Shown in pieces: positions 6,209 to 64,000 of a stretch of DNA of 64,000 bases (within the stretch, counting starts at the first letter, position 1; every line of letters begins with the position of its first letter). The position numbers and the translations under genes were made by a program. The stretch is from an uncultured Acidobacteriota bacterium (GTDB taxonomy: Bacteria > Acidobacteriota > JAAYUB01). The DNA is taken from assembly GCA_964436005.1 (NCBI GenBank), contig CAYTBK010000006.1:2212-66211 (forward strand), in the 5' to 3' direction. The notes beneath the pieces are model-generated. The model was not told where the DNA came from, ran no database searches, and was given only the letters and a program-made list of their open reading frames with translations.

Positions 6209-7038
6209 CGGCAGCCCGCAAAGGCGAAATTTCGGTCGAACCGGGCCACCCGGGCCGCCGCGGCCGGCGGGATCCTTCCCTCGTCGGCGGGAAGCGCGGG
6301 AAGTTCTTGCGGTGATCGGAAGAATTTCCGGGAGAGGAGAAGCTTTTCGCAGTGGAGCTGGAATTCTTCCATGTGCCACTTCCAGGCCAGGCGCCGCCCG
6401 GACTCCAGTTGGCGCCGCTCCACCAGCGGGTCGCCTCCGCGGTCCCGGACGTCGTGCGCGAAGAGCGCCGCCGGGCACACTTTGGTGGAGAACCCGCCCA
6501 GGCGCGCCCGCCACGAGAAATCCACGTCCTCCATGTACAGGAAAAAACCGGGGTCGAAAGGCCCGATGGCCTCGTAAACGGCCCGCGGGACGAGCAGGCA
6601 GCACGCCGAGCACCAGGGGGTGTCGAACTGGAGGGGGTCGTACTCCTTGGGGTGTTCTTCCGGGAACTGCAGGGCTTCGATCAGGGCGGTCGGGAATCGC
6701 CGGTTGAATTCGAGGAGCGCCGCCAGGGCCCGGTGGTGGAAGGCGCCGTCGGGGTTGGCGCAAAGGAAGGCCTGGGCGTGGAGGTCTTCGAAAGCGTGCC
6801 GCATGAGCCGATTGGTGGACACGGCGAACCCGACGTTCCCCTGCGGTTCCAGCACGGTTGCCGCGGGGGTGCAAAGGGCGAGGCCCGGGTCGCCGTGATT
6901 GTCGACGCAGGCGAGGGCGATTTCGCATTCGGCGGGCAACTCGGCGGCGGCGAGGCGGCAGGAGCGGGCCAACCGCTCCAGCTGGTCCGGTGGGTTGGCG
7001 TACGTCGTAACTCCCACAACGATTGTTGTTCCTCGCAT
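6202..7038 (-). CDS. Glycosyltransferase family 2 (rhamnosyltransferase-like motifs)
   Basis: Track ORF 6202..7386, real start MRGTTIVVGVTTYANP at 7038; motifs GNVGFAVSTNR and FFLYMEDVDFSWRARLGGF. Confidence 0.7.
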   Translation of the reverse strand: MRGTTIVVGVTTYANPPDQLERLARSCRLAAAELPAECEIALACVDNHGDPGLALCTPAATVLEPQGNVGFAVSTNRLMRHAFEDLHAQAFLCANPDGAFHHRALAALLEFNRRFPTALIEALQFPEEHPKEYDPLQFDTPWCSACCLLVPRAVYEAIGPFDPGFFLYMEDVDFSWRARLGGFSTKVCPAALFAHDVRDRGGDPLVERRQLESGRRLAWKWHMEEFQLHCEKLLLSRKFFRSPQELPALPADEGRIPPAAAARVARFDRNFAFAGCRW

Positions 7039-12293: not shown

Positions 12294-12445
12294 AACCAGT
12301 TATAATTCATCCAATTGATTCGTCAAATAGTTGGGCTTTATTGAAAAGCATGGTGGAAAAACGATCTCCGGCCTTTGGGGTTTTCCGGGTGTCTTCGGGG
12401 ATCCTTGGGTCGAAGCCCTTTCGCAGAAGAACCAGGAGGTTCGAC

Positions 12446-13924
12446 ATGTTCCTGCCGATCAAGGCGGTGGTGTGCTGGCTGATTTTACTCGACTTCTCCG
12501 GGGAGGCCATGCGGGCCCAGGCGGTCGGGCCTGCTCCCGACCCCGAACTGGCCGCCATCGGGAAAACCATCGACGACGCCATCGGGTGGTTCCGGACCAA
12601 GGATTTCGCCCGGCTCTTCGAAATCTTCGACAGCGGGGCCGAACTGTTCATCTACCATCCGGATTCCGGCACCACGATCCGGGGCTTCGAAGCTTTCCGC
12701 AAGAACGCAGGCGCCTTTGCGGACCCCGACTTCGTTTACGCCGGCCACGCTTTGCGCGACCTGCAGGTGCACCGTTCCGCGGGCGGCGACACGGCCTGGT
12801 TCTCCGCCCTTCTGGAAGACTGCTGGTCGTACCGGGGGAAGAAGGGATGCTGGAAGGACTGCCGCTGGACGGGCGTCCTGTGCCGGCGGAACGGGAAGTG
12901 GGTGATTGCCCAGCTGCATTTTTCCTTCGCCCGGGACACCCTGCTGGCGGAAACCCCCTTCTTCGAGGAAAAATTCCAGGGGCCGGGTGGACTGGTCGGC
13001 CCTGCCCGGACCGCGGAGTACCTGGTGCGTGACGGCGGTCCGGTCCTTCGACTGGAAGGACTCCTGTTCCTGAAGGAGTTGCGGCGGGAGGACTTCCGCC
13101 TGGAGGTGGAAATCCTGGCCGAGGGCCCGTGCTACCCCGGTGTCGCCTTTCACGCCCGGGACGGGTCCGACTACGAGCTGGCCTACCCCGTTCCCCATGC
13201 CAGCGGCCAGCCCGACGCCATCCAGTACGATCCCGTCTTCCGCGGCGGGAATTCCTGGCAACTGTTCAACGGCCCGCCGTACCAGAAAAGTGCGGTCGTT
13301 CCGTTGCGGGAGTGGTTCACCCTGCGCCTGAACGTGCATCGCGGACGGGTTTCCGTGCAGGTGAACGACCAGGATCCCCTGGTGGTGGAGCGGCTGGCGC
13401 ACGGTGCCGGGCCCGGCGGCATCGGGCTGTGGAGCTATCGCCCGGCCTTCTTCCGCAACCTGCGGGTGTTCCCCGCGAGACCCATCCCCGAGACCGGGGT
13501 CAGGGCCACGGCGCCGGCGGACGCGGTTTCCTCGTGGCGGGCCCCGGACGGTTCCCGGTTGCGGGCGGGCGACAACGGCGTGGTGGACGCCGGTGCCGCG
13601 CTGGATCCGGCGACTCGCCAGGCGGTGCTTTCCCGTTCCTTCACCCTGGCGGAAGAGGCCGACGTGACTTTCGGCTTGGGTTTCAGCGATGCCGTCGTGC
13701 TGCGGGTGGATGGCGAGGAGCTCTTCCGGGGTGAGAACCGCTTCCGCGGTTTTGCCGACCTGCCCTCCCGCGGGTGGGTGACGCCGAATGCGCAGACGGT
13801 TCGGAAAAGCCTGTCGGCCGGGACGCACGTCGTGCAGGTGGAACTGTCGGCCCTGGAGCCCTTCGGCTGCGGATTCGTGCTCACGGCGGCGGGCCGGGGC
13901 CTCTCCTTTCCGGACTCGCCCTGA
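12446..13924 (+). CDS. Secreted hypothetical protein; NTF2/SnoaL-like N-terminal domain and a DUF1080-like (laminin-G/3-keto-disaccharide hydrolase-like) central domain
   Basis: Start MFLPIKAVVCWLILL (signal/TM) at 12446 with AGGAGG RBS 12433-12438; motif GGIGLWSYRPAFFRNLRVF resembles DUF1080; domain calls tentative. Confidence 0.6.
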   Translation: MFLPIKAVVCWLILLDFSGEAMRAQAVGPAPDPELAAIGKTIDDAIGWFRTKDFARLFEIFDSGAELFIYHPDSGTTIRGFEAFRKNAGAFADPDFVYAGHALRDLQVHRSAGGDTAWFSALLEDCWSYRGKKGCWKDCRWTGVLCRRNGKWVIAQLHFSFARDTLLAETPFFEEKFQGPGGLVGPARTAEYLVRDGGPVLRLEGLLFLKELRREDFRLEVEILAEGPCYPGVAFHARDGSDYELAYPVPHASGQPDAIQYDPVFRGGNSWQLFNGPPYQKSAVVPLREWFTLRLNVHRGRVSVQVNDQDPLVVERLAHGAGPGGIGLWSYRPAFFRNLRVFPARPIPETGVRATAPADAVSSWRAPDGSRLRAGDNGVVDAGAALDPATRQAVLSRSFTLAEEADVTFGLGFSDAVVLRVDGEELFRGENRFRGFADLPSRGWVTPNAQTVRKSLSAGTHVVQVELSALEPFGCGFVLTAAGRGLSFPDSP

Positions 13925-39427: not shown

Positions 39428-39516
39428 TGGTGCCGAAGGAGGGAATCGAACCCTCACGAGCATCGCTGCCCGCCGGATTTTGAGTCCGGTGCGTCTGCCA
39501 GTTCCGCCACTTCGGC
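39428..39516 (-). tRNA. tRNA-Leu (anticodon CAA), 89 nt with long variable arm and encoded CCA
   Basis: Minus-strand sequence GCCGAAGTGGCGGAACTGGCAGACGCACCGGACTCAAAATCCGGCGGGCAGCGATGCTCGTGAGGGTTCGATTCCCTCCTTCGGCACCA; 7-bp acceptor stem, anticodon loop CUCAAAA. Confidence 0.85.
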
Positions 39517-56794: not shown

Positions 56795-57199
56795 GGGTTC
56801 AAGCCGCACCTCGCGTTGCCTGTAGGCGCCTTGCGCTGCAAGGCGCACTCCCGTTCCGCACGGTTGCGCAAGGATTGTCGTGCGCCGGGGGGCTGCCCGA
56901 AGGTGCGCCTTCCGGCGGAAGGCGCCTCCGGCAGAGCGCCCGTTCCGCACGGCGGCGACGAAGCCGCAGGCCTTGGAGCGGCGCGGTCGAGGCCGGGGTA
57001 GCCCGCCCCTCGCCGAGGGGCGGGCCCTTCCATCGTTGCTTCCCTGTTTTCCGTTGCATTCCCCGGAGCCGCCTCTCGGCGAGAGGCGGCGTACCGAGCT
57101 CCGCCGGCATCCTGCCGGCATCTGCACCAGAGAACGTCGCTTTGCCCTGGGCCGGCTGGAAGCCGGCGGTCCCCGGGTGCGCCTGACGGCGGAACGCGC
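56795..57199. repeat. GC-rich mosaic of palindromic stem-loop repeats (block A); bounds approximate
   Basis: Stem-loops GCGCCTTGCGCTGCAAGGCGC, GGCGCCTTCCGGCGGAAGGCGCC, GCCGGCATCCTGCCGGC, GCCGGCTGGAAGCCGGC; segments 56822-56934 and 57101-57183 recur ~90% identical in block B. Confidence 0.7.
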
Positions 57200-59287
57200 C
57201 TACGGCACCGGCGTGCGCTCCGCCGGCGTCAGGGTCTTTTCCATGGTCACCGCCTTCTCGGCGGCGTGCAGGTCCTTTTCCAGCTGGGCCGCCTCGGTTT
57301 GCAGGGTCTTGCGTTCCTTGTCGAGCAGGTCGAGCTTCCCCTCGATGACGTCCAGCTTGGCCACGTAGCGCTGGACTAGGGGCTTGGCCTCGGCCGACTC
57401 GGCCACTTCCTTGACGCCGTCCTGCAGCTTTTCCCGCTCGTTGTCCAGCTCCTGCCGTTCCCCCTCCAGGACTTCGAGCCGAAGGCGGATGGTTTCCTGG
57501 CGGGCCTTGACCTCCACGATCCGCTCCAGTGCCCGCCGGGTGGCTTCGTCGATGTAATTCTTGGAGAGAAAGAATTTGATGTCGTCGGAAGTGACGTCGG
57601 AGATCTTGTAGACGTCCATCATGGGGCCGCTCACCGGGACCAGCAGTTCCGTCTTCTGACGGGGGGCCAGCTCAAGCCGGAAGAGGAAGGCCGCGGGGGC
57701 GACGGTGACCGGGGTGGCGGCGCCCGGGCCCAGCACCCAGCTCGTCCCTTTCCGGGGGTGGCTGACGTAGACGACGCGGGGGCGGTCGGTGGGGTTTTCC
57801 AGGGCGTAGGTCCACCGCTCGGCCCGGTTGTAGTAGACCTTGACCTCCCCTTCGAGGGCCTTGGCCAGGAACGCCGGCTCGTTGGAGTCCTTCATGGTGG
57901 AAGAGACCAGGGTGGTGGGGTCCTGGGAGAAAAAGAGGAAGATCCTGTCGTCGGGGTTGAATTTGGCCATGGCGGTCTCCCCGGCGAAGGCGTCGCCCTC
58001 GTAGACGACCACGGTGCCCCCCTCCAGCGGCACGGAGGTGGTGTTGCGCACCCGGAGCCCTGAGGCGGGATGGCCGTTGACGCCCGGGCCGGCAATGGAC
58101 ACCCGTTCGCCTTCCAGCGCGGCCTGGAAGACGGGGATCTGGGCGGTCTGCCGCGGCCCGATGCGCACCGGGTGGTCCATGCGGTACTCGTAGAGGTCGC
58201 CCAACTGGCCGGTGCGGGTGTTGGCGCTCACCCCGGCCTCCCCGCCGGCCACGGCGTCGCTGACGGTGGTTTCCTTCGTGTCTGCCGCCACCGCCGGGGA
58301 GGCCGCCCGGACGCCGATGGCGGACGAAAAGTTCGAGGCGTTGGAAACCCCGTCCAGCTGGAATTCCCTTCCCCGCGACCGGGCGGGCTGGGCCCGCGAG
58401 GGCAGCGGCTGGACGGAATTGGCGGGCGAGCCGGAAACCAGGGTGACCCAGACGCTGTCCCAGGACTCGTCGGTGTGGTTTTCCACGGCGGCCCAACCCT
58501 GCAGGAACGGCTTGCCCTCCCCGTCCAGGGCCAGCCGGTAGTTGGTGCTCCAGACCGGCGCGGCGGCGATGTAGCTCACCACCAGTTCCCGGGTCCCGCT
58601 TCCCTCGGAGCTGACCACCACGGTGCGCAGGTCCTGGCTGACGTCCTTGCGCCGCAGGATGGACTTGGCCTTGGCGAATTGCCGGATGTCCGAGCGGACC
58701 CCCTCGTCCAGCACCTTCAGGGACTGGATGGCCGGGAGCTCCACCGAGGCCATCTCTCCGTCGTCCCCGGCGACGACCACCTTCTGGACGACGCGGGTCT
58801 CCTCCTTGCTGGTCAGGGTGTTCTGCTCGACGCAGAGCAGCACGCCCGTCACCGTCCGCCCGGCGCCGACCAGCGACACCCGCGCGCCCTGGAGCTGGGC
58901 GAGGATCCCCAGCAGACCGCCGGCGGGCTCGTTCCGCCCGATGCCTTCCGGGATGGAGAGGGGCAGCCCGTTCGGGCCGGCCGTGGCCGTTTCCGCCATG
59001 TCGCGGCTCACGGCGCCGATGCGGCCCTGGCCGAGGTCGAGGACCAGCAGGGAGCGCATGACGTCCTGGACCTGGAATTCCGGGACCTGCAGACGGATCT
59101 CGGCGTTGCCCGTCACCTGGCCGCGCCGTTCGAAGTAGCCGACGCCGTTGCGGTACAGCACCACGCGGTGCATGGGGAGGGCCTGGACGGTCCAGCCCGC
59201 CGCGGGCGCCGCCGCCGGCTGGGCGGGGGTGGCGGAGCACAAGGCGGCCAGCAGGGCGATGGCGCCGGGGAGGAATGCTCTTTTCAT
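57200..59287 (-). CDS. Secreted DUF4139/DUF4140-like (mucoidy-inhibitor MuiA-like) protein with C-terminal coiled coil
   Basis: Signal peptide; N-terminal VVLYRNGVGYFERRG; family call tentative. Confidence 0.5.
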   Translation of the reverse strand: MKRAFLPGAIALLAALCSATPAQPAAAPAAGWTVQALPMHRVVLYRNGVGYFERRGQVTGNAEIRLQVPEFQVQDVMRSLLVLDLGQGRIGAVSRDMAETATAGPNGLPLSIPEGIGRNEPAGGLLGILAQLQGARVSLVGAGRTVTGVLLCVEQNTLTSKEETRVVQKVVVAGDDGEMASVELPAIQSLKVLDEGVRSDIRQFAKAKSILRRKDVSQDLRTVVVSSEGSGTRELVVSYIAAAPVWSTNYRLALDGEGKPFLQGWAAVENHTDESWDSVWVTLVSGSPANSVQPLPSRAQPARSRGREFQLDGVSNASNFSSAIGVRAASPAVAADTKETTVSDAVAGGEAGVSANTRTGQLGDLYEYRMDHPVRIGPRQTAQIPVFQAALEGERVSIAGPGVNGHPASGLRVRNTTSVPLEGGTVVVYEGDAFAGETAMAKFNPDDRIFLFFSQDPTTLVSSTMKDSNEPAFLAKALEGEVKVYYNRAERWTYALENPTDRPRVVYVSHPRKGTSWVLGPGAATPVTVAPAAFLFRLELAPRQKTELLVPVSGPMMDVYKISDVTSDDIKFFLSKNYIDEATRRALERIVEVKARQETIRLRLEVLEGERQELDNEREKLQDGVKEVAESAEAKPLVQRYVAKLDVIEGKLDLLDKERKTLQTEAAQLEKDLHAAEKAVTMEKTLTPAERTPVP

Positions 59288-59399
59288 GACGGACCTCTCT
59301 GCGGAAGGATGCGGGGATGGGCGCGGGCGCCGGACCCGTGGCGATGGAAATCGGGAAACGATACCTTCTGCCGGCCTGGATTGTCAAAACAATGTTGCG

Positions 59400-59800
59400 A
59401 ATAACGCCGGGCGTCGGGACGCGCCGCGCCTCCGGCAGGGCGCCCGTAGGCGCCGGGCGCCGCCCGGCGCACCCGCGTTCCGTGCCGTCGCGCCGAAGCC
59501 GCAGGCCAGGAGTGCGGCGCGCAGCATCGCTGCGGCCCCCGGGCCGCCGGCATCTTGCCGGCATCCGCACCAGAGAACGTCGCTTGGCCTTGGGCCGGCT
59601 GGAAGCCGGCGGTCCGCGGGTGCGCTTTCCGGCGGAAGGCGCCTCCGGCAGACTTCGTAGGCGCCTTGCGCGGCAAGGCGCACCCCCGTTCCGCGTTGTT
59701 GCGCAAGGTGAGCTGTGCGCCGGGGGGGCTGCCCGAAGGTGCGCCTTCCGGCGGAAGGCGCCTCCGGCAGACTTCGCCGGGCGCCGCCCGCCCTGCCCGC
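59400..59800. repeat. GC-rich palindromic repeat block B, related to block A; bounds approximate
   Basis: Segments 59543-59624 and 59656-59770 match block A; extra copy of GGCGCCTTCCGGCGGAAGGCGCC hairpin at ~59617-59650. Confidence 0.7.
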
Positions 59801-59873
59801 CGTCTCTCACGTCCGCATTAAATATAATGAATTCAGTGAGTAATAAATTCATCAGGCGGGGTGAAAAAAGTTC

Positions 59874-59902
59874 TTGACTACGAAATATATTTGGCCATAA
59901 TG
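59874..59902 (+). promoter_or_regulatory. Sigma-70-like promoter TTGACT-N16/17-cATAATg
   Basis: Read from sequence, 20 nt upstream of ArsR RBS. Confidence 0.45.
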
Positions 59903-59908
59903 CCAAAT
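59889..59908. promoter_or_regulatory. Inverted repeat ATTTGGC-cataat-GCCAAAT overlapping the -10 element; candidate ArsR/SmtB operator
   Basis: Perfect 7-bp arms; typical autoregulatory geometry for ArsR-family repressors. Confidence 0.45.
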
Positions 59909-59922
59909 TGTTGGAGGTCGCG

Positions 59923-60219
59923 ATGCCGGACAATTTCTCGTACCAGTCGAAAGCAGCCGTTCTGAAAGCCATGGCCCACCCCAGCCGCCTGATGATGATC
60001 GACGCCCTGGCCAACGGCGAACGGTGCGTCTGCGAACTGCAGAAGGTGGTGGGGGCCGACATGTCCACCGTCTCCAAGCACCTGACGGTCATGAAATCGG
60101 CCGGCCTGGTGACCGACCGGAAAGTCGGCCTGCAGGTGTTCTACCGCCTGCGCTGCCCCTGCATCCTGAAGTTTTTCGGCTGCGTGGAGGCCGTGCTCGA
60201 GGAAGACTCCCGCAAGTGA
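59923..60219 (+). CDS. ArsR/SmtB family transcriptional repressor with As(III)-type CVC motif
   Basis: HPSRLMMIDALANGERCVCELQKVVGADMSTVSKHLTVMKSAGLV; GGAGG RBS 59913-59917; track start 59908 is TTG. Confidence 0.8.
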   Translation: MPDNFSYQSKAAVLKAMAHPSRLMMIDALANGERCVCELQKVVGADMSTVSKHLTVMKSAGLVTDRKVGLQVFYRLRCPCILKFFGCVEAVLEEDSRK

Positions 60220-60310
60220 GGGGTCTTTTTTTTCGCCTATAAATTGGCAATTTGGGAATATAGACAATAATAACCTGATCAGGGTGTTGAACAATAAAAG
60301 GAGAAATGAC

Positions 60311-60568
60311 ATGGATGAGAAAACCAAGGAATTGATCGCCGTCGGCGTGTCGGTGGGCGTGCACTGCCAGCCGTGCCTGGAATACCACGTGAACAAGGCC
60401 CGGGAACTCGGGAACTCGGACGGGGAAATCCGGGAGGCCATCGAAGTGGGCCACCAGGTGGAAAAGGGTGCGGCGGCGGCCATCCAGAAGCTCGAGAGCA
60501 AGCTCCTGGCGCCGACCTGCCAGGCGGGCTCGTGCTGCACCACGAGCAAGGCCTCCTGCTGCTCGTAA
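60311..60568 (+). CDS. AhpD-core/carboxymuconolactone-decarboxylase-family small protein with C-terminal Cys-rich tail (CCTTSKASCCS)
   Basis: CxxCxxxH core HCQPCLEYH; AGGAG RBS; start MDEKTKEL. Confidence 0.6.
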   Translation: MDEKTKELIAVGVSVGVHCQPCLEYHVNKARELGNSDGEIREAIEVGHQVEKGAAAAIQKLESKLLAPTCQAGSCCTTSKASCCS

Positions 60569-60683
60569 AGACGACCGGATCCGCCCGGCGGCGCCGCTGC
60601 CGGGCGGACCCTATCGGTGACGGAGGGAAAAGGCTGCTGTTCGTTTCGGCGCCCTCGATCCGCAAACCGGAAAGGAGATAAAA

Positions 60684-60929
60684 ATGGAAATACTCGTTTT
60701 AGGAACCGGCTGCGCCAGGTGCGACACGCTGCTGGCCAACGTCCAGGCGGCGGTGGCGCTGTCGGGCGTCGCGGCGACCGTGAGGAAAATCAGCGACATC
60801 AAGGAGATCGTGAAATTCCGGATCCTGATGACTCCGGGCCTGGTCGTCGACGGGGTCGTGAAGGCCGCCGGGCGGGTCCCGAAACCGGAAGAGATCGGCC
60901 AGTTCATCGCCGAAGCGGGAGGTCGCTGA
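60684..60929 (+). CDS. Small thioredoxin-fold protein (redox-active disulfide protein 2-like, CxxC)
   Basis: MEILVLGTGCARCDTL; AAAGGAGA RBS. Confidence 0.7.
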   Translation: MEILVLGTGCARCDTLLANVQAAVALSGVAATVRKISDIKEIVKFRILMTPGLVVDGVVKAAGRVPKPEEIGQFIAEAGGR

Positions 60930-60930
60930 C

Positions 60931-61308
60931 ATGGGGGAAAAACAACCGGGACTCATCATGTGCGTCTGCACGGGGAAGTGCCCTGGCTTCTCCAAGATGG
61001 ACATCTGGGATTTCGTCAACCGGGTGCGCGTGGAACTGCCCGTGGCGTACGCCTTCATCCACCCGCAGCTGTGCGAGGAGGACGGCGATCGCTTCCTGGC
61101 CGACCTGCTCCGGGCCGGGCGCCCGGTGGTCATCGCCGGCTGCGCCCCCAACATGCAGATCAAGCTGTTCCGGGACGCCTTCGCCGGGGCCGGCCTGGAC
61201 GTGAAGACGGACCTGACCCCGCTGGACGTCCGGGACATGACCACCGACGAGGCTTTCCGGAAGGTTTCGGAGGCCCTGGAGAAAATCGGGGAGGCGGACC
61301 ATGCCTGA
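60931..61308 (+). CDS. Cys-rich protein resembling MvhD/FlpD-type iron-sulfur subunit (tentative)
   Basis: GLIMCVCTGKCPGF...AGCAPN; starts 2 nt after previous stop. Confidence 0.4.
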   Translation: MGEKQPGLIMCVCTGKCPGFSKMDIWDFVNRVRVELPVAYAFIHPQLCEEDGDRFLADLLRAGRPVVIAGCAPNMQIKLFRDAFAGAGLDVKTDLTPLDVRDMTTDEAFRKVSEALEKIGEADHA

Positions 61309-61591
61309 CGACACCTTCATGGGGGTCAAGCGGGAGAAGATCCCCTGGTACCCCACCATCGACTACGACAAGTGCGACTTCTGCATGGAGTGCGACAAGT
61401 TCTGCCCGCACCGGGTGTTCGAGCGCCGGGAGGGGCCACGGAAACTGGTGGTGGCCAACCCCAACAACTGCGTCGTTTTCTGCCGGGCCTGCGCCAAGAC
61501 CTGCGGGCCCGAGGCCCTGTCCTTCCCCGTGAAGGCGGAGACCATCGCCCGCATCAAGAAAATCCGCGAGGAAGAAGAGGAGGAGGCATGA
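61301..61591 (+). CDS. 4Fe-4S ferredoxin-type protein
   Basis: CDFCMECDKFCP and CVVFCRACAKTCGPE cluster motifs; poly-Glu tail. Confidence 0.7.
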   Translation: MPDDTFMGVKREKIPWYPTIDYDKCDFCMECDKFCPHRVFERREGPRKLVVANPNNCVVFCRACAKTCGPEALSFPVKAETIARIKKIREEEEEEA

Positions 61592-62436
61592 AGCCGGCCA
61601 TCCTGCCCTGCAACGGTCTGGACAAGCCCCTGGGGCCGCTCGCGCGCGAGCTCGCCCTGGCCCTGGCGGCGGAGACGGGCGGCGAGCTCGTCTGCCCGGT
61701 CCTGCTCAACCAAGCCCCCGACCGGTACCGGGAAATCCTGGCCGCCTCGCCGCTGACCGTGGTGGACGGCTGCGCCACCCGCTGCGCTTCCAAACTGGCG
61801 GCCCGGCTCGGCTGCAAACCGGACCGCAAGGTCTTCCTGCCGGACCGGCTGAAGGAAGCGGGGGAGGCGCCGGAACGAGGCCTGACGCCCGGCCCCCGGG
61901 CCCTGGCGTTCGCCCTCCAGGAGGCTCGCCGGCTGGCGGCCGAACCCCTGGCCTCCGCTGCCGCCCGGGAAGAAGTCGCTTTCCCGGCCCCGGCGGAGTT
62001 TCGGCAGGTCGAGGAGGGCAAGTACGTCTTCCGTTTCCCCGCCGCGGGCTTCCTGTTCAACGAGAACGACTGCTGGGCCCAGGTGGTGGGTGGACGGGCC
62101 CGCGTGGGCGTTTCCGATTTTGTCCAGCAGAACCTTACGGACATCCTGTACTTCGACCCGCCGGAGGCGGGCGCCGTCGTCGAGCAGTTCGGCGAGCTGG
62201 GGACGGTGGAGTCCTCCAAGGCGGTCCTGGAGATCGTCTCGCCCGTGAGCGGGCGGGTGGTCGCCGTCAACGGGGAACTCAAGGACAAGCCGGAACTGGT
62301 CAACGAGGACCCGTACGGGAAGGGGTGGATCGCCGAGCTCGAGTTGACGGCCTTTGCGGAGGACCGTACGTTCCTGCTGGAAGCGGAGGCCTACGCCAGC
62401 CTCGTCCAGGGCAAGGCGGCGGCTGCGGCGAAGTAG
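61588..62436 (+). CDS. DGC-domain (putative Zn-binding) protein fused to GcvH-like lipoyl-binding (glycine-cleavage H) domain
   Basis: Start MKPAILPCNG at 61588 (ATGA overlap with ferredoxin stop); TVVDGCATRCA DGC motif; C-terminus VGVSDFVQQNLTDILYFDPPEAGAVVEQFGELGTVESSKAVLEIVSPVSGRVVAVNGELKDKPELVNEDPYGKGWIAELE matches GcvH including the lipoyl-Lys position. Confidence 0.7.
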   Translation: MKPAILPCNGLDKPLGPLARELALALAAETGGELVCPVLLNQAPDRYREILAASPLTVVDGCATRCASKLAARLGCKPDRKVFLPDRLKEAGEAPERGLTPGPRALAFALQEARRLAAEPLASAAAREEVAFPAPAEFRQVEEGKYVFRFPAAGFLFNENDCWAQVVGGRARVGVSDFVQQNLTDILYFDPPEAGAVVEQFGELGTVESSKAVLEIVSPVSGRVVAVNGELKDKPELVNEDPYGKGWIAELELTAFAEDRTFLLEAEAYASLVQGKAAAAAK

Positions 62437-62550
62437 GCGCCCGCCGGAAGGGGGAAGGATTCCTCGCACGGAGGCACAGGGGCACAGCGGGAGAACGGGA
62501 CCGGGCTGGAAATGCAGGAAGAAAACTAAAGATGTAAAAAGGTGTTCGCA

Positions 62551-62949
62551 ATGGAAGACAGACCGAAAACACTGGTGGTACCCTGCAGCGGCATCGGCAA
62601 GGTGCAGGGTCTGCTCAGCCGCGAAGTCGCCTTCGAACTCGCCGGGCGGCGCGGCCCGGAGGCGTTCGAGACCCTCTGCCTGGCCCTCCTGGTCACGGGC
62701 GACGGGGAGGCGCGGGAGAAGGTCCAAAACTCGCCCTGCGTCACGGTGGACGGATGCCCCAAGCTCTGCGCCTGCCGGAACGTGGAGCTGGCGGGCGGCC
62801 GGGTCGAACGGGCGGTGAAGGTGGTGGACGCCATGAAGGCCCACCGCGGGATGAACGCCGGCACCGCCACGGCCCTGACGGAAGAGGGCTGGCGATTGGT
62901 GACGGAGATGGCCGACGACATCGTCGCCGCGGCGACGAAGGACCGTTGA
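62551..62949 (+). CDS. DGC-domain protein (paralog 2)
   Basis: LVVPCSGIGK...CVTVDGCPKLCA; AAGGTG RBS. Confidence 0.65.
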   Translation: MEDRPKTLVVPCSGIGKVQGLLSREVAFELAGRRGPEAFETLCLALLVTGDGEAREKVQNSPCVTVDGCPKLCACRNVELAGGRVERAVKVVDAMKAHRGMNAGTATALTEEGWRLVTEMADDIVAAATKDR

Positions 62950-62959
62950 GGGAGACGCC

Positions 62960-63646
62960 ATGGTGGAAATCCAGAGAAAAGTGGGCCTCGTCGCCTGCAG
63001 CGGGGAGGAACTCCCCGAGGGTACGGTCTCGCGCAACGCGGTCCGGCGCGTGCTGGAGCACCTGCGGCCGGGGCGGACCGTGACCATCTGCCTGCCGCTC
63101 TTCCTGGCCGGCGGCGAGGAGGAGCGGAACTTCGCCCGTAACCACCCCACCATCGCCGTGGACGGGTGCGCCAAGCGGTGCGCGCAGCGGGGCACGGAAA
63201 TGCACAGCGGGCCGGTGAGCGCGTCGCTGGTGGTGACGGACATCCTGGGCGGGCCGGCAGCCGGCTGCGCCCGGTCCTCCCGCCGGGCCGGGGAGGCCGA
63301 CACCGCGGCGGCCTGGGCGGTGGCCGACCGCATCGCCGCCGAGGTGGACGCTTTGCTGGAAGGCGCCCCGGGCGAAGCGGGGCCGGCGGGCGGCGCCGAC
63401 GCCGGCTGCGCCTGCACGCGGCCGCTGCCGGGCCTGGCGGTGAGCATAGGCGGGCGGTCGGTGACCATCGACGGGCTGAGCCTGATCTTTGGCCAGTTGG
63501 CCGAAGACGGTGTCTCGACGGACGACTCTTCGGCCGAAGCCGTCCTGGAGCGGGTGAAGATCTACCACCCCGTCCCGGCGGAAGAGAATGACGAATACCG
63601 CGGCGCCCTGCTCGGCGCCTACAGGGAATACAGGAGGAATCGATGA
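62960..63646 (+). CDS. DGC-domain protein (paralog 3) with extended Ala/Gly-rich C-terminal region
   Basis: LVACSGEEL...TIAVDGCAKRCA; GGGAGA RBS. Confidence 0.65.
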   Translation: MVEIQRKVGLVACSGEELPEGTVSRNAVRRVLEHLRPGRTVTICLPLFLAGGEEERNFARNHPTIAVDGCAKRCAQRGTEMHSGPVSASLVVTDILGGPAAGCARSSRRAGEADTAAAWAVADRIAAEVDALLEGAPGEAGPAGGADAGCACTRPLPGLAVSIGGRSVTIDGLSLIFGQLAEDGVSTDDSSAEAVLERVKIYHPVPAEENDEYRGALLGAYREYRRNR

Positions 63647-64000
63647 GGAAGAATTGGTGGAAAGTTGTCGTGGTGGTCGTTCTCGCGGCCGCGATCGGGA
63701 TCGTCGTCGCCAACAAGAACCAGGCGGTGAAGGCCGAGGAGAAGGCTTCTGCGCACGCGGCGCCCGCCCCGGCGGCCCAGGAGCGGAAACTGCCCCGGCT
63801 GGTGGATCTCGGGGCGAAAAAGTGCATTCCCTGCAAGATGATGATGCCGATCCTCGACGAACTGGCGAAGGAGTTCCAGGGGAAACTGGCGGTGGAGTTC
63901 ATCGACGTCTGGCAGAACCCCGACGCCGGGGACAAGTACGGCATCCAGAGCATCCCCACCCAGATCTTCTACGACGCCGAGGGCAAGGAATTCTTCCGCC
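63643..64000 (+). CDS. Membrane-anchored thioredoxin-like protein (TlpA/ResA-like, CIPC active site), C-terminus beyond window
   Basis: N-terminal TM helix then LPRLVDLGAKKCIPCKMMMPILDELAKEF; AGGAGG RBS; ATGA overlap with previous stop. Confidence 0.75.
   Translation, partial: MRKNWWKVVVVVVLAAAIGIVVANKNQAVKAEEKASAHAAPAPAAQERKLPRLVDLGAKKCIPCKMMMPILDELAKEFQGKLAVEFIDVWQNPDAGDKYGIQSIPTQIFYDAEGKEFFR

Follow-up and report, generated by a model that had tools for sequence, protein, structure and literature searches.

A conserved iron-sulfur, DGC-domain and lipoyl cassette within an ArsR-controlled ars operon of an uncultured acidobacterium

The canonical ars operons of anaerobes bring together arsR, arsC, acr3, arsM and arsP with genes for thioredoxins and CcdA-type membrane proteins. 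Beside them stands the ArsEFG system known from Shewanella putrefaciens (Chen, Zhang and Rosen 2019, cited via PMC9144182), which, as far as that secondary account describes it, has no iron-sulfur (Fe-S), DGC or lipoyl partners. The only mention of an ars-linked DGC protein found in the literature is an ArsR5-ArsP-ArsE-DGC operon of Pseudodesulfovibrio mercurii ND132, to which no function was assigned (bioRxiv 10.1101/2022.10.17.512643). On the side of lipoyl chemistry, the Hdr-like complexes work with a GcvH-like carrier, LbpA, and with dedicated lipoate ligases (PMC6067878). Here we describe a five-gene cassette at the end of a 64,000-nucleotide stretch of DNA, hereafter the window, from an uncultured Acidobacteriota bacterium (contig CAYTBK010000006.1 of assembly GCA_964436005.1). 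The cassette encodes a cysteine protein of 125 residues that we call Cys125, a ferredoxin, a DGC domain fused to a GcvH domain (DGC::GcvH), and two further DGC proteins, DGC2 and DGC3, and it lies inside an operon headed by an ArsR repressor. No description of such a cassette was found in the searchable literature, a coverage that leaves subscription journals largely outside, and there is no curated NCBIfam model for Cys125, DGC2 or DGC3.

These five genes form a conserved core, which accompanies ars genes in phyla of both Bacteria and Archaea. One genome per species was scanned for the DGC::GcvH fusion, which gave 29 loci with a full-length fusion, and at every one of them Cys125, the ferredoxin, DGC::GcvH, DGC2 and DGC3 follow each other in the same order and orientation. 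The co-conservation of the members, on which the first-pass annotation of this DNA had made its proposal depend, is thus what the genomes display. The hosts span at least six phyla, Asgard archaea included: Bacteroidales, Prolixibacteraceae and Draconibacterium within the Bacteroidota, Clostridia, Actinomycetota, Acidobacteriota, an Armatimonadota-type metagenome-assembled genome (MAG), a MAG labelled Cyanobacteria, and two Heimdallarchaeota, with Chloroflexota and Planctomycetota names added by protein searches. Two of the carriers, Clostridium frigoris DSM 14204 and Eubacterium callanderi FD, are in culture. Because the five central genes are syntenic in all the loci and over many phyla, the arrangement is far beyond chance. 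Between phyla, Cys125 (64-78% identity) and the ferredoxin (61-79%) are unusually well kept and the fusion is 38-53% identical, and the predicted ligand cysteines (five in Cys125, eight in the ferredoxin and four in each DGC domain) are invariant across 31-32 sequences. The cassette is also abundant, as the fusion makes up 932 clusters at 90% identity (E<=1e-20).

Two variants of the arrangement were seen. At an actinomycetotal locus (L019), extra GcvH-like paralogues flank the core at 6249-6827 and 12389-12772. A Bathyarchaeota contig (L057, 9980-11302) carries a reduced version, in which three DGC-type genes, the first of them short, sit beside ArsR and Acr3 with no detectable Cys125 or ferredoxin.

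A link to a metalloid-sensing regulator had been suspected from the window alone, and the neighbourhoods of the core strengthen it. Neighbours were counted within 10 kb of the core at the 29 loci, by clustering of flanking open reading frames and by family scans. ArsR or another ars gene is nearby at 26; at the other three the contig is short or breaks off at the core. ArsR itself is found at 22 loci, in many other phyla as a CVC-bearing gene that adjoins the core. ArsE-type thioredoxins are present at 18 and DsbD_TM proteins of the ArsG/CcdA type at about 18, while Acr3, at 12 loci, is the commonest transporter in the vicinity. Less frequent companions are ArsF-family proteins and the membrane thioredoxin (10 loci each), rhodanese (7), ArsC and ArsP (5 each) and ArsM (4), and an AhpD-like gene such as that of the window occurs at only a few.

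Within the window, the core belongs to nine co-directional, tightly packed genes on the plus strand that run from position 59923 to the window end. Their packing, with short gaps or ATGA overlaps, was recognized in the first reading and is confirmed by the spacings: 91 nt from arsR to the ahpD-like gene, 115 nt from there to the small thioredoxin gene, 1 nt between the latter and Cys125, an 8-nt overlap of Cys125 with the ferredoxin gene, an ATGA overlap of the ferredoxin gene with DGC::GcvH, gaps of 114 nt before DGC2 and 10 nt before DGC3, and a second ATGA overlap between DGC3 and the gene for a membrane-anchored thioredoxin. The last of these genes is cut by the window end. Two identical contigs (L001, 3,963 bp, and L088, 2,001 bp) complete it to 140 aa, and both have a DsbD_TM/CcdA gene starting one base after it, of which these short contigs cover about 0.8 kb past the window end.

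The rest of the operon can be read from a relative. The nearest one retrievable, the Acidobacteria MAG GCA_018001935.1 (locus L083), has exactly the gene order of the window, with identities of about 70-89% for the core proteins (89% for Cys125, and 70% for both DGC2 and DGC::GcvH). Its operon goes on with a DsbD_TM gene, an ArsF-family gene (82 bits against a cutoff of 60), a rhodanese, an ArsC of the LMWP type (138 bits, under the cutoff of 174), Acr3 (448 against 283) and ArsM (292 against 263). The first-pass annotation had remarked on the lack of acr3, arsC and arsM in the cluster; this is true within the window, and most probably it is so because the window stops inside the operon, whose tail in L083 holds all three. 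The genes from 59923 to the window end correspond to the 5' two-thirds of this ArsR-controlled ars operon, and the bacterium that bears them is of an anaerobe type with high GC content.

With the canonical ars operons this one shares a repressor with As(III)-type cysteines (a CVC ArsR) at its head, operator-like palindromes over the promoters, a pair of thioredoxin and DsbD_TM genes and, in L083, an end made of ArsC, Acr3 and ArsM. What sets it apart is the added five-gene Fe-S/DGC/lipoyl cassette. It had been foreseen that a standard ars operon downstream might account for every component; a canonical tail does exist in L083, but the five-gene core is not explained by it. The operon qualifies as an ars operon, and it carries an undescribed, widely conserved Fe-S/DGC/lipoyl module.

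The likeness to ArsEFG is partial. The ArsE-family thioredoxin of the window scores above the curated cutoff and L083 has an ArsF-family protein, whereas the DsbD_TM protein is weakly ArsG-like: the CcdA fragment of the window strain reaches 47 bits and its L083 orthologue 50 bits against the cutoff of 200, which makes it no ArsG equivalog. The Bacteroidota loci come closer, since there the cassette directly follows arsR and a bona fide arsE, arsF and arsG (the last at 311 bits against 200). In the ArsF-family proteins at L008 (8058-9176) and L083 (14212-14652), a signal peptide is combined with a thioredoxin-like CPTC motif. Judged from these features, ArsE as a cytoplasmic thioredoxin, ArsG as a DsbD_TM protein and ArsF as an exported thioredoxin-like protein look like a transmembrane thiol-disulfide relay, a reading that would depart from the published nitroreductase/efflux naming of the three.

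We now turn to the core proteins, for which domains were called by Pfam and NCBIfam profile searches, with a reporting limit of E<=0.01. The first gene (60931..61308, plus strand) encodes Cys125, which has no match in either library within that limit. An AlphaFold (AF2) model built with 34 homologues has a flavodoxin-like fold (predicted local distance difference test score, pLDDT, 84.5), and its only significant neighbours in a Foldseek comparison with the PDB are HdrA chains (chain A of 7bkb, 5odc and 8rvy; E 2.5e-5 to 8e-4, probability 1.0). A profile search of PDB sequences puts residues 2-90 of Cys125 on residues 2-90 of HdrA (E 0.005), which shows the matched part to be the N-terminal domain, and aligns Cys11, Cys13, Cys48 and Cys71 with HdrA cysteines. 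On fold and profile, then, Cys125 is a predicted Fe-S protein that resembles a stand-alone HdrA N-terminal domain. The MvhD/FlpD-like identity (PF02662) given to it in the first reading was given up, as there is no Pfam match and the top fold matches are HdrA, not MvhD. In HdrA itself, the N-terminal domain holds its Fe-S cluster with its own cysteines and one cysteine supplied in trans (PMC9012536). The invariant cysteines of Cys125 are 11, 13, 17, 48 and 71, and the extra one, Cys17, could stand in for the trans ligand or serve as a reactive thiol. The conservation goes beyond the cysteines, with the motifs MDIWDF, HPQLCEEDGDRF and CAPNMQ also invariant.

The second gene (61301..61591, plus strand) encodes the ferredoxin, 96 aa long, with Fer4-family matches and the motifs CxxCxxCxxxCP and CxxxCxxCxxxC of a 2x[4Fe-4S]-type protein, all eight cysteines being invariant; its best NCBIfam match, under threshold, is HgcB-like. 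Taken together with the lipoyl carrier described below and the lipoate ligases found at 9 of the 29 loci, an HdrA-N-type Fe-S protein next to a ferredoxin recalls HdrA and the sHdr-LbpA systems (PMC6067878). The differences are plain, however: Cys125 is a single domain of 125 aa without the FAD-binding, thioredoxin-reductase-like body or the ferredoxin domains of HdrA, neither the nine proteins of the window operon nor the genes listed for L083 include an HdrB/C CCG-domain match, and the lipoyl carrier is joined to DGC in one polypeptide, in the context of arsenic genes rather than of sulfur oxidation.

The DGC domain occurs three times in the cassette, each time well above the gathering cutoff of PF08859 (27 bits) and each time with four invariant cysteines in the pattern C-x27-30-C-x25-DGC-x3-C. 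DGC::GcvH (61588..62436, plus strand; 282 aa) scores 57.7 bits for PF08859 and 108 bits for PF01597; DGC2 (62551..62949, plus strand; 132 aa) scores 53.7 bits and DGC3 (62960..63646, plus strand; 228 aa) 58.4 bits. The AF2 model of DGC2 (pLDDT 90.2) is a three-layer, flavodoxin-like alpha/beta fold in which the invariant cysteines (C...C...DGCxxxC) stand at the ends of beta1, beta2 and beta3, the position of ligand sites in such folds. As both the DGC domain and the HdrA-N-like Cys125 are flavodoxin-like with cysteines after beta1, beta2 and beta3, a shared origin of the two was considered; it was rejected at an hhalign probability of 0.05. The ND132 protein DND132_2314 (PF08859) has the same domain and the same link to ArsR and ArsE, but the window has three DGC paralogues, one of them fused to GcvH, within a five-gene Fe-S cassette. 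The family as a whole is small, with 445 clusters at 50% identity. Its natural fusions (P0362, P0414, P0439, P0445, P0475 and P0406) include DGC-DGC (for example P0362 and P0414), DGC with an ArsE-type Thioredoxin_3 domain (P0475) and GcvH-DGC. The first two kinds suggest that DGC2 and DGC3 associate with each other and that ArsE-type thioredoxins are partners of DGC domains.

Some minor features of the DGC proteins may be recorded here. DGC3 has a C-terminal extension of about 125 aa (residues ~100-228, window 63260-63646) with a CxC motif and no family match; it is found in the long homologues (~200-246 aa) of L002, L004, L006, L007 and L083 (227 aa in the last) and is absent from the homologues of ~130-160 aa at the remaining loci, which makes it lineage-specific. 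One family member is a GT4 glycosyltransferase-DGC protein, perhaps a chimera produced by gene calling. At L007 (11082-11084) an in-frame TGA takes the place of a DGC-motif cysteine codon (ITIDG*AKACAQ), with the frame conserved downstream. Selenocysteine as a redox marker at this site was rejected as a candidate, the downstream RNA having no stability like that of a selenocysteine insertion sequence (SECIS; z +1.4), and a degenerate pattern scan of a metagenome collection for such a TGA gave six matches, all unrelated. The TGA could be selenocysteine, a TGC-to-TGA sequencing error or the mark of a pseudogene.

The lipoyl part of the cassette is the GcvH domain of the fusion, which has the GcvH fold and the lipoyl-lysine motif of the glycine cleavage H protein, with Lys211 inside a VESSK motif and lysine at this position in 32 of 32 sequences. 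A lipoate-protein ligase (LplA; TIGR00545, 424 bits against 280) is encoded near the core at 9 of the 29 loci, though it is seen neither in the window nor within 10 kb in L083. Dihydrolipoyl dehydrogenase (Lpd; TIGR01350, 514 bits against 409) is near the core at four loci, all of them Clostridia; it lies immediately upstream of Cys125 at L005, L016 and L026 and about 3 kb upstream, with genes between, at L012. Because of the ligase genes and the clostridial dehydrogenases, the lipoyl chemistry appears to be functional, and the idea of a lipoate-based role, put forward in the first reading, gains backing from the invariant lysine and from the same genes. Could the fusion instead be a housekeeping H protein of glycine cleavage in an accidental neighbourhood? 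Public annotation does call it "glycine cleavage system protein H", and the GcvH models fall just under their cutoffs (PRK01202, 114.8 against 117; TIGR00527, 102.2 against 115.85). This explanation is nevertheless scarcely credible, being contradicted by synteny: the domain is always fused to DGC and always placed between the same four genes, the fusion is co-regulated with ars genes, and the genes listed within 10 kb of the core in L083 and at 57-64 kb of the window include neither gcvT nor gcvP. The cassette is not a glycine cleavage system, nor an Hdr or sHdr complex, nor a member of the MvhD/FlpD family.

What the cassette does has to be read from its parts and its company. It probably marks an undescribed step in the arsenic handling of anaerobes. 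Our preferred reading, a tentative one to which we give a probability of roughly 0.4, is that it is a dedicated, arsenic-induced supply of dithiol reductant for thiol-based arsenic detoxification. Under this reading, the five core proteins would assemble as a cytoplasmic redox complex, into which low-potential electrons would come by way of the ferredoxin and the HdrA-N-like cluster, and in the Clostridia NADH would provide input through the co-encoded Lpd. From there the electrons would move over the cysteine centres of the three DGC domains to the GcvH domain, where they would reduce the disulfide of the swinging lipoyl arm. Once reduced, this protein-bound dithiol would recycle the CxxC proteins of the operon, namely the AhpD-like protein and the ArsE-type thioredoxin, which in turn may serve ArsC and ArsM and, via CcdA/ArsG, the exported thioredoxin-like proteins. 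Alternatively, or in addition, the dithiol may act on arsenicals directly. An Fe-S input is proposed on account of the match, in fold and in aligned cysteines, between Cys125 and the N-terminal Fe-S domain of HdrA. A dedicated supply of this kind would fit anoxic cells, in which arsenite itself poisons the ordinary lipoyl and dithiol systems.

There is a model for part of this electron path in another bacterium. The AhpC-AhpD-DlaT-Lpd system of Mycobacterium tuberculosis takes electrons from NADH over Lpd and a lipoyl arm to a CxxC protein of the AhpD type, and Bryk and colleagues reportedly found in 2002 that its AhpD is reduced by a lipoyl protein plus Lpd. An AhpD-fold CxxC protein and a lipoyl carrier are present in our operon as well, with Lpd at some of the loci. 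Unlike the mycobacterial relay, the cassette has no AhpC peroxiredoxin, it has extra Fe-S and DGC subunits, and the AhpD-like gene is found at few loci. The Hdr-like complexes with their LbpA carrier and lipoate ligases (PMC6067878) are a second precedent for the proposed scheme.

Several points weigh against a dithiol supply. The direction of electron flow and its acceptor are suggested solely by domain content and neighbours, and the arsC, acr3 and arsM tail is assigned to the window operon by synteny with L083. The metal content of the DGC domain goes back to a database label, "putative zinc-binding"; DGC2 has no significant relative in the PDB by fold or sequence, and so no informative structural neighbour, and between the DGC domain and Cys125 there is no detectable profile homology. 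At roughly a third of the loci neither ArsE nor CcdA is found in the vicinity, which implies that the core can stand with ArsR alone and favours a self-contained activity. Lastly, the ArsEFG proteins of Shewanella are reported, in the secondary account cited above, to be functional in E. coli with no cassette of this kind present (via PMC9144182).

That self-contained activity might be enzymatic. The cassette itself could be an anaerobic enzyme that transforms arsenicals, with the Fe-S chain and the lipoyl arm feeding electrons to a substrate held at the cysteines of the DGC domains or Cys125. It might reduce thioarsenates or pentavalent methylated or aromatic arsenicals, carry out the six-electron reduction of nitro groups that has been ascribed to ArsE/F, or cleave the C-As bond independently of O2. 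We know of no enzyme identified for these anaerobic reactions. Several loci, such as L009, L024 and L029/L030, have ArsR as the sole ars-type neighbour of the core, and at L016 its companions are limited to ArsR, LplA and Lpd; Cys125 is conserved far beyond its cysteine ligands, as is expected of a catalytic subunit; and the core adjoins arsEFG in the Bacteroidota and has links to two proteins that act on organoarsenicals, ArsP and ArsM. This evidence is purely contextual, however. No substrate-binding or catalytic motif could be linked to such reactions, a CVC-type ArsR is induced by trivalent species that need no reduction, and to our knowledge lipoyl-dependent arsenical chemistry has no precedent. 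We hold the enzyme to be possible, if somewhat unlikely, and rate in the same way the broader idea of a lipoyl-arm-dependent Fe-S complex that acts on arsenicals under anoxia, with DGC as its arsenical-binding or redox module.

The many cysteines admit a further explanation, in which the cassette is a chaperone or sink for arsenite and organoarsenite, an ArsD-like role played without arsD or arsA. The dihydrolipoyl arm and the multi-cysteine DGC sites would capture trivalent arsenicals and hand them to Acr3 or ArsP, and the Fe-S part would only maintain the thiols in the reduced state or set off the release. As(III) is bound with high affinity by dihydrolipoyl groups, its classical ligands, all three DGC domains bring a cluster of four invariant cysteines, Acr3 is the transporter most often nearby, and no arsD or arsA cluster is found among the conserved neighbours. 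The N-terminus of Cys125, MCVCTGKC, also appears to resemble the As(III) site of ArsD, MCCSTGVCG. An ArsD-like identity of Cys125 was tried on this ground and rejected, with no ArsD chain among the top 50 PDB fold matches listed; its fold and aligned cysteines fit the Fe-S domain of HdrA. An eight-cysteine ferredoxin and Lpd are hard to justify for binding alone, and a single copy per operon would give little stoichiometric capacity as a sink. We consider this role doubtful.

The third possibility we weighed leaves arsenic aside: a general module for thiol, persulfide or sulfur stress under an ArsR/BigR-type regulator, in the form of a DsrEFH-like sulfur relay or of disulfide-stress repair, with the arsenic association secondary. 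Three consecutive small alpha/beta cysteine paralogues may be likened to DsrEFH/TusBCD, rhodanese genes are present at 7 of the 29 loci, the L009 core adjoins a gene of the cysteine desulfurase family, and BigR is the second-best NCBIfam model for the window's ArsR, though far under threshold. Yet the neighbours are specifically arsenical (Acr3, ArsC, ArsM, ArsP, ArsEFG), the As(III)-type CVC motif recurs in the regulators of many phyla, and no Dsr, Sox or Hdr-B/C genes lie nearby. A sulfur-stress module is improbable on this evidence.

Whichever of the arsenic roles applies, the cassette bears on a wider question. Where soils, sediments, paddy fields and guts are anoxic, the cycling of arsenic relies on steps that no known enzyme accounts for, among them anaerobic demethylation, the reduction of As(V) in methylated and aromatic compounds, and the provision of electrons to thiol-based detoxification. 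Here is an abundant, widespread cassette (more than 900 DGC::GcvH clusters), tightly tied to ars genes, all of whose proteins are uncharacterised. An arsenic role would give the DGC domain its first biological context, and the non-canonical employment of lipoylated proteins of the GcvH type, recognised not long ago, would then reach further than sulfur oxidation. The proposal can be tested directly in the two cultured carriers, E. callanderi FD and C. frigoris DSM 14204.

The remaining genes of the window operon agree in large part with their first domain calls: the CVC-type ArsR, the AhpD-like protein and the small thioredoxin stand, as do the ferredoxin, DGC::GcvH and the two DGC proteins of the core, while the FlpD-like call fell and the likeness of the membrane thioredoxin to TlpA is weak. 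ArsR, an ArsR/SmtB repressor of 98 aa (59923..60219, plus strand), matches PF01022 (HTH_5) at 48.5 bits and NF033788 at 88.2 bits against a cutoff of 55; it has Cys35-Val-Cys37 in the DNA-binding region and Cys78, Cys80 and Cys87 towards the C-terminus. The AhpD-like CxxC protein of the CMD family (60311..60568, plus strand; 85 aa, with an alternative GTG start at 60284) matches PF02627 at 46.3 bits and TIGR00778 at 41 bits. It has a CQPC motif and a cysteine-rich C-terminal tail, and at the domain level it resembles the ArsM-AhpD fusion selenoproteins. The small cytoplasmic CxxC thioredoxin (60684..60929, plus strand; 81 aa) matches PF13192 (Thioredoxin_3) at 81.5 bits and TIGR00412, the "MTH895/ArsE family", at 89 bits against a cutoff of 62. 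The membrane-anchored thioredoxin (63643..64000, plus strand, up to the window end) matches PF00085 at 47.8 bits and has an N-terminal transmembrane helix and a CIPC motif. A homologue of it in a Draconibacterium MAG (L018, 7332-7334) has TGA in place of the first cysteine of the CxxC, likely a UxxC selenoprotein form.

A promoter scan gave three sites against 0.4 expected by shuffling, among them two sigma-70-like promoters, each overlapped by TTGGC-type palindromic half-sites. The first, TTGACT-16-CATAAT (59874..59908, plus strand), lies before arsR and is overlapped by the palindrome ATTTGGCCATAATGCCAAAT, which is likely the ArsR operator. The second, TTGGCA-16-AATAAT (60244..60271, plus strand), lies in the gap downstream of arsR and has related half-sites, TTGGCAA/TGGGAATATAG. 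Both blocks are kept in L083, the one at the arsR promoter as TTGGC(C/A)ATAATGCCAAATTGTTGGAGG. The two promoter regions stand out at 59300-60300 as sharply AT-rich islands within surroundings of 64-76% GC. A T-run follows the arsR stop codon, with no clear terminator hairpin there.

A few observations concern genes and repeats around the core and the operon. A small protein that matches the corrinoid Fe-S protein (the gamma subunit CdhE/AcsC) in its N-terminal Fe-S domain adjoins the core at some loci, L013 (8703-9242) and L009 among them; at L009 (6802-7320 and 7387-8544) the cysteine desulfurase family gene is a further neighbour. Upstream of the window operon, GC-rich intergenic repeats resembling repetitive extragenic palindromes (REP-like), in units of ~49-122 nt, lie at 56822-57209 and 59446-59813, where they flank a minus-strand gene of 695 aa and lie just upstream of the arsR promoter. 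The units have internal palindromes such as GGCGCCTTCCGGCGGAAGGCGCC, and a 34-nt repeat core has three copies in the window against none expected. The sole tRNA gene of the window is a tRNA-Leu(CAA) at 39428-39516 on the minus strand.

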